NCBI GenBank assembly: GCA_041641305.1
Contig: JBEPYN010000002.1
Location: 1-64,000 of the forward strand
Origin: Nitrososphaerota archaeon
GTDB lineage: Archaea; Thermoproteota; Nitrososphaeria_A; Caldarchaeales; Caldarchaeaceae
DNA: 64,000 nucleotides
Reading direction: 5' to 3'
Shown: piece after piece, positions 32,804-41,319 of the stretch
Position numbering within the stretch: position 1 is the stretch's first letter
Layout of the letters: the number at the start of each line of letters is the position of its first letter
Translations under genes and position numbers: made by a program
Notes under the pieces: model-generated
Databases searched by the model: none
Seen by the model: only the letters and a program-made list of their open reading frames with translations
What the model was told of the DNA's origin: nothing

Positions 32804-33355
32804 TTAGCCGAGTAGAGAGGTCAGGGCCGAGGCTATTGGCTCGGAGAGGAATGAGACGCCTTGGCTGATTACAAGCGAGATGGCGACGAATGTTCCGAAG
32901 AGTACCAACGCGACGGCGAGGTTTCCGTTCTTCAGCTCATCCTGTATGTTGAATTTCTCGATCTCGACAGCCGGCAGCTTCGAAGCCGCTTTGACCAACC
33001 ATGAATAAACCCTGTTCTGAGCCCATGTAATCACGACGATGGCAAGCGGAAGCCCGATGAACAGCTGAACAAGTCCACCTACTATCGCCGGCACGTTGAA
33101 GGAGCCTGGGACAACAGCCTTACTTATCCCCGAGACAGCCTGTCCAACCACGTTGCCCACCGCGATGAGAATACCGGCGATGTAGACACCGACGGCGAGG
33201 TTCTTCTTCCGTATCTCCTCAAACTCGTTGATGTCCTTCGTGGACCTGTTGAGAATGTTGATGGCGACGGTCACGCTGAAGAGGGCTAGGGCCACCGCGA
33301 AAATAAGCTGAATCAACGCGATGACGATGTCTACCAGAGCTGTTACGAGAGACAT
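32804..33355 (-). CDS. DUF350 membrane protein
   Basis: Duplicated 'INEFEEIRKKNLAVG' / 'IQDELKNGNLAVA' motif. Confidence 0.8.
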   Translation of the reverse strand: MSLVTALVDIVIALIQLIFAVALALFSVTVAINILNRSTKDINEFEEIRKKNLAVGVYIAGILIAVGNVVGQAVSGISKAVVPGSFNVPAIVGGLVQLFIGLPLAIVVITWAQNRVYSWLVKAASKLPAVEIEKFNIQDELKNGNLAVALVLFGTFVAISLVISQGVSFLSEPIASALTSLLG

Positions 33356-33400
33356 CAAGGCGTGCTACTTTATTGCACTTTTTAAATTTTTACATACTTT

Positions 33401-35638
33401 TTACTCTTGGACATGGATGATGCAGCCCATGTAGTGTTTCGAGAGGCTTCTGATGTGGTAGACGCCCTGCGCACGGAATTTATGCTTCCACTTACCCTCA
33501 GGCTTAATCTCCTCCGAAGTAAAGAGATATTCTGCGGGGCCCATGTATGCCTCGATGACGTGCGGTGTCCTGTCTTTGTTGACGAAGGTGACCGTTGCGC
33601 CTTTTTTCACGGAAACGACGGAGGGCTTCATATAGACATCTTCGATTATCGGCTGACCATCATCACTCCAGCCAAAGGGAGGCTTGTCGCTTCTGTTGAT
33701 GATTATTTTTGCTCGGCGGCCGTCGAGAACAGCTGCAACTAGTGGAAGAGGTAGGAGGAGGAAAGGTAGGTAGAACCATGGCGGCAGCTCCAGCCAATTC
33801 ACCTCACCTCTCACGGTCGTGGTCAACTCTACCGTAGCAGTTGTGGTGGTGTTGCGTGAAACAGTTGTTGTGGCTGCTATGGTTTCTGACCGTGTTGTGG
33901 CAACGGTGGCGTAGACGGTGTTCAAAATAATTGAAGTTGAAATATCGGTGACCGTGGTTTGAACAGTTGCATGCACTGTTTCTGTAAGTGAATAAGTTGA
34001 CGTGGTTAACTGTGTAAATGTGGTGTAGAGGGCTGATGAGAATGTTTCTGTCACATATCTTGTATTGGTTATTGTAGCTGTGGTTGTTTGAGTGAGAGTT
34101 GATGTGATTGCTGAAGTAGTGGTCTGTGTGTAGGTGGCTGTCGTTGTAGAGGTTGACGTTGTTGTAAAGAATAAGGAGCGGGGACAAAAAGCTCCATAAA
34201 AACCATAGATCACCACACCTAAATCCGTGTCAAAAACAGGTGTCCAAATATTTTCATCCCACAAATCATATCTTAAATCCGGCTTGAACGGCAATATACT
34301 TGGGCCCCCCACATCTGTCCACAGTGGAAACGTAAAGTTAAACAGGTTAAGAAAAACGTATTCAAGCCTATAGTACTCCGAGGCTCCGCCAAGGTAGACA
34401 CAGTCGCCAAAAGCGTCAACTCCCAGAACCTGCACACTATAATATGGGCTTTCTTCGCCGCGTATACGGAATCCAAAAGATGCTTCGCCGTTGAATTTGT
34501 TTACGGCAAGCAACAAACCATGAGACGGCCGCTCACTACCTGAACCCATGTAATCATTCGTGGAGAAACCGCCTATGAACAAGTATGTATCCGAAACCGC
34601 CCCTGACACACCATAGGCAAACCGTATCACAATGTGTTCTGGCGGAGTGGTCGAGGGGTCCATGTAAACGTTAAAGGCCGGATAAGATTGAACCCATAGA
34701 CTGTTCATGTATCTGTCAAACTTGTGGACAGCTACAACATCATTGGCCATGAACTTCCGATATGTCTCGATTACGTAGACGTCGTTATTATTCCTGTCCA
34801 CAACTATCTCCAGCCCTGGGAAAAACCCTTCTATAGGAAGCAGAATGGTTGTGTTGGTGGGAGACAGGTTTGTCTTGTTGAGCTCTAGGATGAACACCCT
34901 TGCCCCATTCCAATTTGCACTATTGTACCCGGTTATTCCTCCTACATAGACTCTTTGGTCCCCGAGAGCTATCGACAAGCCTAAATCACTTGCCGGGTCG
35001 TATATTTGATAGAATCCGTCGATTACCGGTTGCAGATATTGGTCAAGCCTAACAACATAAAATCCCAATCTTTCGGCTATAAAAAGCCCAACCAGCAGAT
35101 AAACACCCGTCTCGTCAACAGCCAAATCAATACCCTCACCGGTTAAGATTGTGACAAAAGAAATTTCTTCAAAATCAGTTACATAAAATCTATGAATCCC
35201 GGTTAGATTACAATCGGCTTTTGAAAAAGCCGCGACATACACAGCTATAGCTCCGAGTCTCGAGGCCCAGTAATAACCTGCCACAAAGACATGAGTCTGA
35301 TTCAATTCAACCGATGCAGCTAACCCGAAAGCAAACCCAGTGTCAACAGGGAATTCGACATAGTTGCTGCAGCGATGAGTATGATCAGGGTTCATGATTG
35401 TTAGAGAAGACTGAGGTAGTCTATAATCTATAGATGATGTGGAACCCACCATGTATATCCCGTCCTCGTCGACCTCAATATCATATACCGATGCTAGCCC
35501 CGCGACGCCTCTGTTCTCAATATCAAAGGTCCGAAGCAAACCATATGCGGGGTCTGCTTGAGAAGCTTGCCAAGGCATCAACCACAGTAACGTCAAAAGA
35601 ACAGTGACTATGATTAAGCTTGTGTTTCTTTTCATCAT
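33401..35638 (-). CDS. Surface protein: beta-propeller, Thr-rich stalk, TM, C-terminal degenerate cupredoxin domain
   Basis: Signal peptide, repeated xYxxG blades, about 120-aa Thr-rich tract, TM, PSVVSVKKGATVTFVN...PH; several N-x-T/S sequons; lower GC. Confidence 0.75.
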   Translation of the reverse strand: MMKRNTSLIIVTVLLTLLWLMPWQASQADPAYGLLRTFDIENRGVAGLASVYDIEVDEDGIYMVGSTSSIDYRLPQSSLTIMNPDHTHRCSNYVEFPVDTGFAFGLAASVELNQTHVFVAGYYWASRLGAIAVYVAAFSKADCNLTGIHRFYVTDFEEISFVTILTGEGIDLAVDETGVYLLVGLFIAERLGFYVVRLDQYLQPVIDGFYQIYDPASDLGLSIALGDQRVYVGGITGYNSANWNGARVFILELNKTNLSPTNTTILLPIEGFFPGLEIVVDRNNNDVYVIETYRKFMANDVVAVHKFDRYMNSLWVQSYPAFNVYMDPSTTPPEHIVIRFAYGVSGAVSDTYLFIGGFSTNDYMGSGSERPSHGLLLAVNKFNGEASFGFRIRGEESPYYSVQVLGVDAFGDCVYLGGASEYYRLEYVFLNLFNFTFPLWTDVGGPSILPFKPDLRYDLWDENIWTPVFDTDLGVVIYGFYGAFCPRSLFFTTTSTSTTTATYTQTTTSAITSTLTQTTTATITNTRYVTETFSSALYTTFTQLTTSTYSLTETVHATVQTTVTDISTSIILNTVYATVATTRSETIAATTTVSRNTTTTATVELTTTVRGEVNWLELPPWFYLPFLLLPLPLVAAVLDGRRAKIIINRSDKPPFGWSDDGQPIIEDVYMKPSVVSVKKGATVTFVNKDRTPHVIEAYMGPAEYLFTSEEIKPEGKWKHKFRAQGVYHIRSLSKHYMGCIIHVQE

Positions 35639-35692
35639 TGAAACTGCCGACACAAAGTGATATTCTTAATTCTTAATTTGCCAGAATCTGTT

Positions 35693-35767: not shown

Positions 35768-37879
35768 CTACGGGTAGACTACTTCGTAGATGTATACGTA
35801 TGCGAGTGATTGGTAGGGTGGGCTTGACTGGTATACGAGGCGGAAGTAGTTGAGTTGGCTGGGGTTGTAGAGGTGTCCGGGGCCGAAGGCTGTTTGGGTT
35901 GGTTTGTATGGGATGAGTTGGCCGAGGAGTGTTTGCCAGAACCGCTGAGTGGGCTGGAAGTTCTGGTCAACGTAGTCCGATTCCCGGTAGAAATGTCCGG
36001 TCTGGTTGGCTATCCGCAGCATCCAAATCCACTTCCCCTCGTCGCCGAACCCGAGCAAACGCCCATACGCCTGACCACCCTGCACAACAAACTGATGCGT
36101 CACATAGATAACCACGTGTGTGACGTTGTGGCGGCGGAAAATCTCCATCGCAGTTCTCTCATCGCTCATGAAGGCGTGGGCCACGTCACCTATCTGCGTC
36201 GAGTTGATTGTTCCGTTGTCGATGAGCGTGATTCTCTCACCCAGTATGGTTATCCAGTAGCCGTAGTCCCACCACGACGCCACAACCGCGTCCTTGGGGA
36301 GATTGTCACGCATCCATGCAAGGGCCCTGACCCAGTCGGGGATGGATTGGCGGGCGGGGAAGCTCGATGTAACAATCGTGGCAGGCTGGTAACCCTGGTC
36401 GATAGGCGACAAAGTAACTCTCGAACCAAGCCCTCCATAGACCGACGGCACAATCGAGACAAGAAGCAGGAGAACAAGCAGCACAGGCGTGAATGCGGCG
36501 AGCCCTATGTTCACCTCCTCACCCCTTCTCTTCGAAGCACGTCTCTGTGCAATCAAGTCACCAAGCCGGGTGAAGACAAATGCGTAGCCATGTCCCGCGA
36601 CAAGCGCGACAGCCGGTGACGCGAGGAGGGAGAGGCGGACCATCGATGACGCGAAATACGCCGCGAAGAGGAGAAAGAGGACGATGAAGAGGTCGGGGTC
36701 GCGCCGCGTCTTGATAAGCTGGTAAACGCCAATAGGCACGAGAGCCAGGGCCAGCCCAAAGTCGGAAAACATGATGGACCACGTCGGAACCTGGTTTTCC
36801 GCAACCGATTCAACGATGGGCAAAGCGTCGCGGAGACCCGGGAGCAGAACGGAGAGGAACTTGAGCCCCGGCACACCGAGGAAACCGAGGCCCAGCAAAG
36901 AGAAGAACCCGACAGCCGAGAGAAAGAGCACCGTTAAAATGGTTAAACGCCTTACCTCGGGCTGCTTTATCCGCGAAGCCGCCTCAAACACGGCGAGGAT
37001 GAAGAGGGCGATGAAGCCTGAGAAGATGGTGATTTCGCGGATGTAGCCGGGGCCGAGCTTGGGGACAGACACAGCGATGGACGTGTATACGGCGAAGGCG
37101 AGGGCTGTCGCGACCAGCAGGTTTCGGCGATATCTTCCGATTACGGCGAGGATGACGCTGAACAACGGTATGTACGCTAGCGGAAACTTGTGCGCACCCC
37201 AACTAGCTGCCATGAAGCCGAGAAACAGCCCCGACAACAAGGAGAAAACAACCGTCCCACGCAGACTCCTCTTCTCAGAAATCGCAGCCAAGTAGAAGAT
37301 GTATCCGCCCAGCATCAGAGGCAGGCTGAGGCTCTCGTCATCAAACCATCCCAGATGAGTACGCCCGATATGCGCCGTGCTAATCGCCATGAACAGCGCA
37401 GCGGCCAACCCCGTAGAGGAGCCGCCGACACGTTTACCGAGAAAATATACGGCGACAACAGTCAACACCCCGTAGACAACCGGCAGCGCCGCGGCGAGCT
37501 CGAGAGTGTCCACGGTTACGCCGAAGGATTTGAGGGTGAGGTAGATGAATGCCATCGCGAAGGGGATGCCGGGGAAAGCCGTGCGCCCCATGTCCCGGCC
37601 CCACGGATACCACGACATCGTATCATGCCAGTTGAAGAACTCGGCGAACCCGCCCCAGCCCCGCTCAATCACGAACAAAGCCTCCTTATATTGAACCCAT
37701 GGGTCAAACTCGGAGAGAGCAACACCCCAGCGGAGAGGCAGCACACGGAGAACAAAAGCCGTGCTCAGCAACAGAAGAAGAATACCCAGCTCAGCCAAAC
37801 GATGCCTCCCACCCAGCACACGGTCCACACGCCTCAGCCCAGACAAAACACGCCCAACAGACAAACCCGTTCCAGCCAA
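35768..37879 (-). CDS. aglB: Oligosaccharyltransferase AglB/STT3
   Basis: EFDPW, FDDE, SVAEN, WWDYG, DNGT, DEGK; multiple TM segments. Confidence 0.96.
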   Translation of the reverse strand: MAGTGLSVGRVLSGLRRVDRVLGGRHRLAELGILLLLLSTAFVLRVLPLRWGVALSEFDPWVQYKEALFVIERGWGGFAEFFNWHDTMSWYPWGRDMGRTAFPGIPFAMAFIYLTLKSFGVTVDTLELAAALPVVYGVLTVVAVYFLGKRVGGSSTGLAAALFMAISTAHIGRTHLGWFDDESLSLPLMLGGYIFYLAAISEKRSLRGTVVFSLLSGLFLGFMAASWGAHKFPLAYIPLFSVILAVIGRYRRNLLVATALAFAVYTSIAVSVPKLGPGYIREITIFSGFIALFILAVFEAASRIKQPEVRRLTILTVLFLSAVGFFSLLGLGFLGVPGLKFLSVLLPGLRDALPIVESVAENQVPTWSIMFSDFGLALALVPIGVYQLIKTRRDPDLFIVLFLLFAAYFASSMVRLSLLASPAVALVAGHGYAFVFTRLGDLIAQRRASKRRGEEVNIGLAAFTPVLLVLLLLVSIVPSVYGGLGSRVTLSPIDQGYQPATIVTSSFPARQSIPDWVRALAWMRDNLPKDAVVASWWDYGYWITILGERITLIDNGTINSTQIGDVAHAFMSDERTAMEIFRRHNVTHVVIYVTHQFVVQGGQAYGRLLGFGDEGKWIWMLRIANQTGHFYRESDYVDQNFQPTQRFWQTLLGQLIPYKPTQTAFGPGHLYNPSQLNYFRLVYQSSPPYQSLAYVYIYEVVYP

Positions 37880-37996
37880 ATTCCCCCAAACACCAGACTA
37901 AAAACCTATTTCCAATAATACGAACATAGTCTCGAATTATTACGAGAGCCGGCGACTAATGTAAAAGATTTAAAACTCTCTTCCCGTGAAGCCGCC

Positions 37997-39715
37997 ATGA
38001 TGAGGAGAATTTGTGTAGCTGGTTTGTTGGCTGCCCTGATGTTAACGGCGGTTATGAGCGGGTTAGGTGAGGTTGTCAGCTTCCGCCTCTCCTACGGCGG
38101 CCCCGCAGACGACATCACCACAGACATCTACGTCGACGCCAACGGCATATACACCGTGGGTTACACAACATCTTTCGGCCCCAACACACCCAACGCTTTC
38201 CTCACAATCTTCAACAGCGACAACACCCATCGATGCAGCGTAGCCCTCGACCTCGGAGCCAGCGAAGAAGCCAGAGCCCTGACATTTCACAACAACAAAA
38301 TATACATGCTCGGAAAAACAACAGCAGGGTCGACGCCCCCCAACCACTTCGTCGCCGTCTTCGACACCAGCTGCAGCCTCCAAACCATAAACCTCTACGA
38401 CATAGGGCCCGGCGAAGAAGTAACAGACATAGCCGTCGAGCCGGCCGCTTCCCCATCGTTCTATGTCGTAGGCTATCAGCCGGGTATTGGCGCATTCGTT
38501 GAGAAGCTTGACTCAAGCCTCAACGTGGTGTGGGCCAAGAACTTCAAGGTGCGTGGTGGAAACGATTTGGCGAACGCGGTCGCCTTCGCTGGAGGCCGCG
38601 TCTACATAGCTGGCACATCCGACGACGGAAGCTCCCTCGAGATGTTTGTCACAGTCTTCGACACCAGCGGCAACCACATAGCCACAAGAGAAATAGGCGG
38701 GTCAAACAACGACGAAGCATATGACGTCATCGTCTCTGCGGGAAACATCTACCTCGCCGGAAAAACATTCATCGCGGGAAGACAGGATGAAGCTATCCTG
38801 GTGCGTCTGGACTCTGGCTTGGCGCTACAGTGGATAAGAGCCTTTGGAACATCCACAGGCGACGAGGTCGCGTATGGCTTAACAGCCGTGGGCGGAACCC
38901 TCTACATAGCCGGCTACACCACCGGATATGGAACACGGGACGTGTTGCTCGCAGCCTACGCCGCCGACGGAACATTCTCACACTCATTCTTCATCACCGG
39001 CGGCCCCTCGGGCGACGACTGGGCTCATTCGGCGGCCTCGCTCGGAGCATGTGTCTACCTCGCGGGCCAACACGTCAACTTACCGCTCTTCTACGTCATA
39101 AACGACCTACAAAACGCACAATCCTCCTCTGTTTCGCTGACGGTTGAAACATTGACACCGACCATGACCAATGTCACCCCATCAACATCACCGCCTTCAC
39201 CCGGCGTCGCAACCTACACACCTTCGATAAACACCGCAGCCAACATCAACTCCTTTTACTCAAGGTTCTGCCCCGACAACCTTGTCTCAACAAGCACGAC
39301 CACAGTGACCTCGACAGTTGGCACAACCACCACGGCCACGGCTACAGCGACAACCACGACAACCGCCTACGCAATAGCCACGACAACAATCACGCAGACA
39401 AGCTCCGTCATCCTCGTCTCAACAGCAACCAGCACCACAACAATCCCAGTCACAACAACTCAGACACAAACACAGACGACGACAAACACCCAAACAGTGA
39501 CAACCACAGCCACCACAACCACAACCTCAACAGCACAAACCACACAGACACAGTCAACAACACTAACCCTGACACAGATAACAACCATCGCCTTCGCCGA
39601 ACCCGTCTCAACCTACATACTCCCCATGCTCCTCATACTCATAGCAGTCCTCGTGGGAACAGCGATAATCGTCGGCAGAAGAAGACAACCCCAGCCACAA
39701 CCACCCACCTTCTAA
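37997..39715 (+). CDS. Surface beta-propeller (SBBP-like) protein with Thr-rich stalk and C-terminal TM anchor
   Basis: Repeated GGxxDDxAxxI..YxAGxT blades; Thr tract at about 39290-39590; TM followed by RRR. Confidence 0.82.
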   Translation: MMRRICVAGLLAALMLTAVMSGLGEVVSFRLSYGGPADDITTDIYVDANGIYTVGYTTSFGPNTPNAFLTIFNSDNTHRCSVALDLGASEEARALTFHNNKIYMLGKTTAGSTPPNHFVAVFDTSCSLQTINLYDIGPGEEVTDIAVEPAASPSFYVVGYQPGIGAFVEKLDSSLNVVWAKNFKVRGGNDLANAVAFAGGRVYIAGTSDDGSSLEMFVTVFDTSGNHIATREIGGSNNDEAYDVIVSAGNIYLAGKTFIAGRQDEAILVRLDSGLALQWIRAFGTSTGDEVAYGLTAVGGTLYIAGYTTGYGTRDVLLAAYAADGTFSHSFFITGGPSGDDWAHSAASLGACVYLAGQHVNLPLFYVINDLQNAQSSSVSLTVETLTPTMTNVTPSTSPPSPGVATYTPSINTAANINSFYSRFCPDNLVSTSTTTVTSTVGTTTTATATATTTTTAYAIATTTITQTSSVILVSTATSTTTIPVTTTQTQTQTTTNTQTVTTTATTTTTSTAQTTQTQSTTLTLTQITTIAFAEPVSTYILPMLLILIAVLVGTAIIVGRRRQPQPQPPTF

Positions 39716-39901
39716 ACTTTCCCAACCATTTTGCTATTTTTTCTGATAGTGACAACGATAAACAACGCACTACTCTCCAACAAAAAGGAAATTCTCAAAC
39801 TGCGATATAGCCGAGGTAAATGGCGGAGAAAGATGTAGTGACTTGGTCCGCGGGGAGGAAAATTAGCCTTTTTAAATGGCTGATGAGGGAAGGGTGTCGG
39901 G

Positions 39902-40294
39902 ATGGCTGAGAGAGTTAGGCGGCTTATCGACGCTGTGTATGAGCTGGTTCAGAGGCCTGGGTTTCAGGAGCTGTTGTCATGGCTTGCCGTGGTTGTTTCG
40001 AGTATTGTTTTGGCGGGTGTTGTTTACAATGTTGCTTCGCGGGTTGTGATTGGTGTGGCGTTTATCGGCGACTCTGTCAGGGTGTTTTACCCCGATACAC
40101 GGGTTCAGACGGTTGCGGAGATGATGGTTGTCGCAACCTTCTACATCCTCGGCTTCGTCGGCCTCCTTCTGTATGGTGTGGCTTTCAGCAAACGGTTCAG
40201 CCCCAGAGCCTCCCGCTACATGCTGCTCTTCAGCACCCTGCTCATCACGCTCGCCGCCCTCGGGCTAATCGGCGGATACCTCTCAAAAACGTAG
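39902..40294 (+). CDS. OSTC/DC2-like (OST3/OST6 family) oligosaccharyltransferase accessory subunit
   Basis: Three TMs; AGVVYNV, F....QTVAE, YILGFVGL, RYMLLF and terminal K are collinear with eukaryotic DC2 as recalled. Confidence 0.7.
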   Translation: MAERVRRLIDAVYELVQRPGFQELLSWLAVVVSSIVLAGVVYNVASRVVIGVAFIGDSVRVFYPDTRVQTVAEMMVVATFYILGFVGLLLYGVAFSKRFSPRASRYMLLFSTLLITLAALGLIGGYLSKT

Positions 40295-40927
40295 AAACTC
40301 CACACCCTTCTCCACTATCTTAAAATAGATTTTCTGGGCAACGGGCTTCTCCTGCATCACCACCGAAGCGTCGCGTCCTCTCTGAACCTTGGCAACCACG
40401 TCAGACCAATAGGTGACTATGCGGGCTGCGACAGGCTCCTGCGCATCGATCGCTGGAATAGAGTGGACAAGACCCACCAAGACGACGGAGATTTTCCTAA
40501 CGATTGCGAGGTTTTTCAGTAAAGCGGCTTGTAGCGAGAGGGCCCTGTATATAGGTAGGTCTGTGGATGGTTTTCCGCTGAGCTCGAGCTTGTGTAGGTA
40601 GGTGAAGTCGTCGCAGACTATTAGCGACGCGTCCGAGGGCGGGAAATCGTGGACGTTGAGCAGCGTCTCGAGCTGTTCATGGAATGTTCGGGGCTGGCTG
40701 ATGTAGAGCTGGTCAAGCCTCTCAACTGGGAAAATCTGTCTAAGACGAGCAGGGTGCAGCCGTGCTCCACAATCTATCCAAACAACTTTTCCACCTCTCT
40801 CAGCTATCTTCGCCGCGGCTGAGAGAAGCAACGCTGTCTTACCCGACTTCTCCTCACCATACAGCAGATAAGACGATGTGGACTTGAAGTCTGCTGTGAA
40901 AAAATCTCTGATGCCTGCCGTCTTCAC
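40283..40927 (-). CDS. RadB-like RecA-family ATPase
   Basis: GEEKSGKT, VVWID, LIVCDD, IVTYWSD. Confidence 0.8.
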   Translation of the reverse strand: MKTAGIRDFFTADFKSTSSYLLYGEEKSGKTALLLSAAAKIAERGGKVVWIDCGARLHPARLRQIFPVERLDQLYISQPRTFHEQLETLLNVHDFPPSDASLIVCDDFTYLHKLELSGKPSTDLPIYRALSLQAALLKNLAIVRKISVVLVGLVHSIPAIDAQEPVAARIVTYWSDVVAKVQRGRDASVVMQEKPVAQKIYFKIVEKGVEFLRF

Positions 40928-41007
40928 TGTCTCGGAAAATGGTGAGACGGGTTATAGGCTTAACTTTTTATGATGCTGGATTGTGTGGACGGCGGCTCAG
41001 GGGGCTG

Positions 41008-41319
41008 ATGATGCGGCGGATTATCCGATTCAAGCCCGAGTATCTTGACCTTATTCTCAAGGGCTTGAAGACGTCAACCATCAGGCCCGGCGACGGCGGC
41101 GACTACGCCAAGGAGCTGATTCTGACAGATGGAAAACGCAGAATAGCAGCGGAGCTGCTCGCCGTAGAGGTCATGACCCTCCGCGAAGCCGTAAACACAC
41201 GCTATCAACTTGAGGGATACAGCTCACCCGAAGAACTCTACCAAAGCATCAAAAAAATCTACAACAACATCGGACCCGACGACCCCGTAACCATCATCCA
41301 CTTCAACCCAAAAACATAA
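41008..41319 (+). CDS. ASCH-domain protein
   Basis: FKPEYLDLILKGLKTSTIR, EGYSSPEEL, VTIIHF. Confidence 0.88.
   Translation: MMRRIIRFKPEYLDLILKGLKTSTIRPGDGGDYAKELILTDGKRRIAAELLAVEVMTLREAVNTRYQLEGYSSPEELYQSIKKIYNNIGPDDPVTIIHFNPKT

Follow-up and report, generated by a model that had tools for sequence, protein, structure and literature searches.

Does the oligosaccharyltransferase (OST) AglB of a non-Asgard archaeon work alone, or together with a small membrane subunit of the kind that accompanies its eukaryotic counterpart STT3? Reviews and structural work alike take archaeal AglB for an enzyme of one subunit. The question is raised by a locus within a 64,000-nucleotide stretch of DNA, here called the window, from a member of the Caldarchaeales ("Aigarchaeota"), a TACK-type archaeon outside the Asgard group whose genome assembly (1.66 Mb, four contigs) is 99.3% complete. 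An original prediction, made from the sequence alone, described an open reading frame (ORF) for a 130-residue protein with three transmembrane (TM) helices at 39902–40294 on the forward strand, 2 kb from aglB, and took its product for a homolog of the OST subunit OSTC (DC2); the ORF is present exactly so. By its family profiles the protein is genuinely related, though diverged, to the eukaryotic accessory subunits Ost3/Ost6/OSTC (DC2), and it is probably a noncatalytic partner of AglB.

The OSTC-like protein and its family

Searched singly, the 130-residue sequence matches the Pfam model OST3_OST6 (PF04756) at 17.9 bits (E = 0.0021), short of the gathering score of 27, over profile positions 183 to 276 of 294, which correspond to the TM part. 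Because this score lies below the cutoff, family membership rests on the family profile and not on the single sequence. The OSTC-like family is small, with 17 clusters found when 1.8 billion representatives were searched all-against-all with HMMER, and we represented it by two alignments, A1 with 22 sequences and A2 with 46 sequences from across the phylum. PF04756 is matched by 18 of the 22 A1 members (best E value 8.3e-9) and, at E ≤ 0.01, by 39 of the 46 A2 members (best again 8.3e-9), the latter always on the TM part. Against 177,635 PDB sequences, the A2 profile recovers human OSTC (8.1e-9), MagT1 (3e-8), and canine OSTC (9.1e-8), and the first match after these three OST3/6-family chains has an E value of 0.86. 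Composition bias is ruled out as the cause, since the PDB holds thousands of further membrane chains that obtain no score. Through the family profile, the similarity is far above chance, which bears out the predicted homology to the membrane module of OST3/6 and OSTC (DC2).

The alignment between A2 and OSTC covers nearly the full length of both, from profile positions 31 to 140 of 142 and from OSTC residues 28 to 143 of 149. Gly39 and Gly87 are invariant in A2 and Gln69 is kept by at least 90% of its members, while Glu73 and Lys129 are invariant in A1, with Glu73 replaced by Asp in some family members. Human OSTC and MagT1 both have the identical residues at Gly39 in TM1, at the Q69-x3-E73 motif that opens TM2, at Gly87 in TM2, and at the C-terminal Lys. 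The collinear segments that had been matched to human OSTC by eye are all recovered in the HMMER alignments to the deposited protein, namely VVVS..G..Y, RV..Q...E, the Gly-rich TM2, Y/F-LLLF at the start of TM3, and the terminal Lys.

The profiles place OSTC and MagT1 at nearly equal distance with A2 (8.1e-9 versus 3e-8), and the order of the two is reversed with the narrower A1 profile. The protein may be an ortholog of DC2, or it may represent only the membrane module of the family. The CxxC-containing thioredoxin domain and the four TM helices of the Ost3/Ost6/TUSC3/MagT1 type are not found in the 130-residue protein, and the fact that it has no thioredoxin domain makes its architecture that of OSTC/DC2 rather than of Ost3/6 proper. 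Two other PF04756 matches in the genome were considered and set aside as unrelated to OST. One, at 102570–102812 of contig C1, is a plain cytoplasmic thioredoxin of 135 residues (WCAPC); it is the sole match in the genome to the thioredoxin part of the model and lies elsewhere than the OSTC-like locus. The other, at 782148–782348 of the same contig, is a two-helix ORF of 78 residues.

The AlphaFold2 (AF2) model of the protein (predicted local distance difference test score 79) begins with an N-terminal amphipathic helix and continues with three long TM helices at residues 19–46, 71–95, and 101–129, the first loop containing a short β-hairpin. The loop between TM2 and TM3, SKRFSPRASR, consists of 10 residues with a charge of +4, which suggests that it lies inside and hence that the N terminus is cytoplasmic, whereas the first loop and the C terminus are outside. 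DC2 has the same orientation as deduced here, its C-terminal tail being lumenal (PMC5674889). Upstream of the gene, a TATA-box-like element, TTTTTAAAT, can be read from the sequence at 39869–39877 (+), ≈25 nt 5′ of the ATG at 39902; together with general archaeal promoter architecture, it suggests transcription from a promoter belonging to the gene itself, with a near-leaderless transcript as the product.

Of 400 genomes sampled from the phylum, 194 have a match to the A1 profile, and the gene occurs in 93 of 161 genera. Almost every matching genome has a single copy, and nearly all genomes of the window's own order carry the gene. Across the 93 genera the ORF is free of stops, and its polar residues within the membrane are conserved. 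The close relatives of the 130-residue protein carry the organism name Candidatus Caldarchaeum sp., and every member of the family is named "hypothetical protein" in the databases.

A eukaryote-like AglB and its linkage to the OSTC-like gene

The candidate partner, aglB, lies at 35768–37879 on the reverse strand and is the only STT3 copy in the genome. Its 703-residue product matches Pfam STT3 (2.5e-37) and the STT3/AglB core domains and carries the motifs WWDYG, DNGTINST, and GDEGKWIWMLRI. The best PDB match is STT3A, the human protein aligning over residues 31–640 with an E value of 3.4e-72, and yeast Stt3 follows at 7e-63; euryarchaeal AglBs match in the C-terminal domain only, at ≈1e-7. 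The alignment with STT3A pairs WWDYG, the double sequon (DNGTINST versus DNNTWNNT), and the DK-type motif (GDEGKWIWMLRI versus DDINKFLWMVRI). Judged by these comparisons, the window AglB is eukaryote-like and much closer to human STT3A than to euryarchaeal AglBs. Eukaryote-like AglBs of TACK archaea have been described before (PMC8993221, PMC4973528). In one 99%-complete genome of the sample, G030 of family f21, neither the OSTC-like gene nor a match to STT3 (PF02516, E ≤ 0.001) was found, and AglB is perhaps missing there or strongly diverged.

To understand how the two genes are arranged elsewhere, we examined the 10-kb flanks of the OSTC-like gene in 40 genomes, which represent 16 families. 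In 25 of the 40 loci, drawn from 10 of the 16 families, aglB is no farther than 10 kb away, where chance would place it in ≈0.5 of 40. The two genes are divergent in 22 of the 25 linked loci, and in 11 loci from six families the intergenic gap is less than 500 bp. This recurrence of the head-to-head pairing across the phylum supports the functional tie to aglB that had been predicted. In the window itself, the pair is separated by a gene at 37997–39715 (+) for a 572-residue, C-terminally anchored, secreted surface protein that is Ser/Thr-rich and β-propeller-like. The insertion is genus-specific, with a homolog upstream of the OSTC-like gene in five of eight other genomes of the genus, and in sister genera aglB lies directly upstream, head-to-head with the OSTC-like gene. 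A gene for a protein of ≈700 residues that stands between the two in some lineages was suspected to encode a second AglB and proved to be topoisomerase I.

The most conserved neighbor is a gene for a radB-like RecA-family ATPase (TIGR02237 RadB, 1.4e-25), which in the window occupies 40283–40927 (−) and converges on the OSTC-like gene, with a 12-bp overlap at the 3′ end of the latter. In 32 of the 40 loci a radB-like gene is no more than 1.5 kb away, and in 31 it is downstream and convergent. The carS gene, encoding CDP-archaeol synthase, is found between the OSTC-like and radB-like genes in 17 loci, and nine loci have topoisomerase I upstream of the OSTC-like gene. The OSTC-like gene is thus part of an ancient block of housekeeping genes (aglB, topA, ostC, carS, radB). 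The order of these functionally unrelated genes is conserved to an unusual depth. Because the radB-like neighbor is more conserved than aglB (32 versus 25 of 40), synteny alone is not specific for glycosylation.

Proposed role and flanking genes

A partnership with AglB is suggested by the homology, the shared conserved residues, the common deduced topology, and the pairing with aglB. The neighborhood by itself would be no proof of a role in glycosylation; it is homology and pairing together that point to AglB. Given this homology and the conserved linkage, we infer physical binding to AglB and an effect on glycosylation. In the cytoplasmic membrane, the 130-residue protein would pack on the TM domain of AglB/STT3, which is eukaryote-like, contacting AglB where Ost3 and DC2 sit on STT3, and the two proteins would form a minimal two-subunit OST in which the small, noncatalytic subunit stabilizes or modulates the enzyme. 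We assign this reading a probability of ≈0.65. In eukaryotes, the accessory subunits DC2 and MagT1/TUSC3 make direct contact with their cognate STT3 and lose stability when it is missing, and DC2, with KCP2, also docks OST-A on Sec61 (PMC5674889, PMC7226087). The multisubunit, eukaryote-style OST of the original prediction is not supported: in the window's own genome, ribophorin I (PF04597) and DAD1 (PF02109) have no match at E ≤ 1 and KCP2 (PF09775) has none, in a search that covered these three subunits and left out Ost4, Ost5, Wbp1, and Swp1, so the enzyme would have at most two subunits.

Several observations weigh against the proposed partnership. With the A1 profile, no copy of the OSTC-like gene is found in several whole families (0/56, 0/23, 0/16, and others), among them families that keep AglB (0/56 and 0/23, for example). 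In four genomes from gene-lacking families no small three-TM ORF lies beside aglB, and the idea of a hidden, diverged copy at that site was abandoned for these genomes. Families that keep AglB without the gene imply that the subunit is dispensable for at least some AglBs. The AglBs of the four genomes are longer (784–887 residues) and score lower on the STT3 model (52–92 versus 130 bits), and it is possible that the presence of the subunit is linked to the type of AglB. Fused or longer forms, such as thioredoxin–Ost3 or AglB fusions, were not found among proteins of 334–2000 residues, which is weak evidence. Genome G018, which belongs to the same genus, has no aglB in the 10 kb to either side of the OSTC-like gene, and the linkage seen elsewhere could in part be the inherited order of the housekeeping block. 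The VIA-align scores of the AF2 model against 8b6l_J (Z = 9.4), MagT1 6s7t_H (Z = 8.1, root-mean-square deviation (RMSD) 2.5 over 94 residues), and 6s7o_H (Z = 8.0, RMSD 3.1 over 96 residues) are no higher than those for unrelated helical bundles. The predicted structure, for which Foldseek ranks two OSTC chains first and second among 350,542 PDB chains at E values above 1, is compatible with OSTC and MagT1 and not decisive, and the case for homology rests on the sequence profiles.

Could the protein be a true OST3/6-family homolog that acts independently of AglB, its position being simply inherited gene order? It could then serve in MagT1/TUSC3-like cation transport or in a lipid or membrane function; cation transport was once proposed for MagT1/TUSC3. 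The radB-like (32 of 40) and carS (17 of 40) neighbors, as conserved as aglB or more, fit such a role, as do the 15 of 40 loci in which aglB is unlinked, that of the same-genus genome included, and the lineages with AglB and no OSTC-like gene. We nevertheless consider it unlikely, given that all characterized family members are STT3-bound OST subunits (6S7O, 6S7T; PMC5674889, PMC7226087) and that head-to-head pairing with gaps below 500 bp in six separate families is far above chance. Improbable to a greater degree, and in our view speculation, is the full model of the original prediction, a bridge from AglB to SecYE-β for cotranslational, translocon-coupled N-glycosylation, such as DC2 and KCP2 provide between STT3A and Sec61. 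The profile does not separate OSTC from MagT1 (8e-9 versus 3e-8), KCP2, ribophorin I, and DAD1 are not detected in the genome, and the window holds no secY linkage, even though the architecture and best PDB match are those of OSTC, a translocon-bound OST-A subunit, and the top PDB match of AglB is STT3A. A chance likeness among hydrophobic three-helix proteins, or an ORF that is not a gene, would accord with the single-sequence Pfam score (17.9 versus 27 bits) and with the Foldseek E values above 1. That explanation is effectively refuted by the PF04756 and PDB profile results, with OST3/6-family chains as the sole significant matches at E ≈ 1e-8 and 39 of 46 members matching PF04756; an ORF kept without stops in 93 genera, with conserved polar residues in the membrane, likewise speaks against it. 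A noncatalytic subunit of AglB remains the role that we favor.

The other flank of aglB carries a gene at 33401–35653 (−) for a paralogous surface protein of 750 residues with nine N-X-S/T sequons, a possible candidate substrate of AglB. The two secreted proteins that bracket aglB are diverged paralogs that share weak Kelch/propeller-like matches, a long linker rich in Thr and Ser, and a membrane anchor at the C terminus; the 572-residue protein has only one sequon. The 750-residue protein also has a cupredoxin-like domain (Pfam Cupredoxin_1, E = 0.005) after its TM helix, an odd site for a copper domain. The region is flanked by genes for a DUF350 membrane protein at 32804–33358 (−; 1.4e-17) and an ASCH-domain protein at 40939–41319 (+; 1.9e-11), both ordinary-looking. 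In the complete genome G018 (locus L035, G018:C1:652700–672600), nucleotide homology to the window begins ≈30 bp upstream of the OSTC-like ORF, at window position 39870, and the breakpoint of the rearrangement is right at the promoter of the OSTC-like gene. In one Caldarchaeales genus, the OSTC-like gene stands head-to-head not with aglB but with a gene (G137, L046:10330–12450, +) for a 706-residue protein that contains cupredoxin/COX2-like domains as well as a nitrous-oxide-reductase propeller repeat.

Comparison with known OST subunits

Noncatalytic OST subunits have been classed as eukaryotic signature proteins, with prokaryotic Ost1 and Ost3 homologs regarded as Asgard features (PMC10307638), and a 2016 study reported no promising prokaryotic candidates (PMC4973528). 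The original prediction noted that OST3/6 homologs are discussed mostly for Asgard archaea; a homolog outside that group is not new, since a single sentence in PMC11417166 states that OST1 and OST3/6 are present in TACK and Asgard archaea, and PF04756 proteins have been collected across 966 archaeal genomes (PMC12411855). The OSTC-like family is missing from a survey of membrane proteins in archaea (PMC5898192). In the literature searched, the pairing with aglB is not described, and we found no experiment on a TACK OST3/6-like protein.

We also put forward a broader and more tentative proposal, which we regard as possible rather than probable: most Thermoproteota may have an obligate heterodimer of AglB and a DC2-like protein, and the three-helix form without thioredoxin may be ancestral to Ost3/6 and OSTC, predating the split between TACK and Asgard archaea, with the thioredoxin domain added later. 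If so, OST complexity began before the Asgard archaea, and the lineages in which the subunit is not detected (two sampled families, 0/56 and 0/23) remodeled their AglB. A DC2-like gene head-to-head with an STT3A-like aglB in many non-Asgard lineages would offer a simple test system for what the Ost3/DC2 module does for STT3, when OST became multisubunit, and whether the DC2 architecture is ancestral or derived. For annotation, a "hypothetical protein" of the Caldarchaeales becomes a candidate AglB subunit.

Among archaeal proteins, one comparison is with the PF04756-positive hypothetical proteins of Bathyarchaeia and Methanomethylicia, which belong to the same family, are of the same size, share the aglB/radB/carS neighborhood, and are recovered by the A1 and A2 profiles at 1e-18 to 1e-32. 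Those proteins pass the Pfam model, whereas the Caldarchaeales branch does not and has no precomputed Pfam match. The Asgard OST3/6 homologs (Zaremba-Niedzwiedzka 2017, as cited in PMC10307638; an MK-D1 protein in PMC11417166) are of the same Pfam family and likewise occur in genomes with a eukaryote-like STT3. They co-occur, however, with homologs of Ost1, Ost4, Ost5, and TRAP, whereas here only STT3 and the OSTC-like subunit are detected.

Of the eukaryotic proteins, Ost3p/Ost6p, TUSC3, and MagT1 (PF04756; 6S7T chain H) are homologous to the archaeal protein through their TM2–TM4 region (3e-8) and share the same conserved residues. The archaeal protein differs from them in having no signal peptide, no lumenal CxxC thioredoxin domain, and no counterpart of their first TM helix, and without the CxxC domain the oxidoreductase function that defines Ost3/6 is impossible for it. 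In architecture, the closer parallel is OSTC (DC2), the STT3A-specific subunit of OST-A in humans and other metazoans (PDB 6S7O chain H, 8PN9 chain H, 8B6L chain J, and 6FTG chain 3). Identity to OSTC is only ≈12–15%, the first external loop of the archaeal protein is shorter, and its cell has no endoplasmic reticulum and no detected KCP2, ribophorin I, or DAD1. Like metazoan and plant OSTC/DC2, however, the archaeal protein has the membrane module only, with three TM helices, a size in the range of ≈130–150 residues, and nothing corresponding to the thioredoxin domain; it aligns with OSTC collinearly over its full length (8.1e-9), shares both Gly residues, the Q-x3-E motif, and the C-terminal Lys, has the same deduced topology with the N terminus inside and the C terminus outside, and is accompanied by an STT3A-like gene for the catalytic partner.

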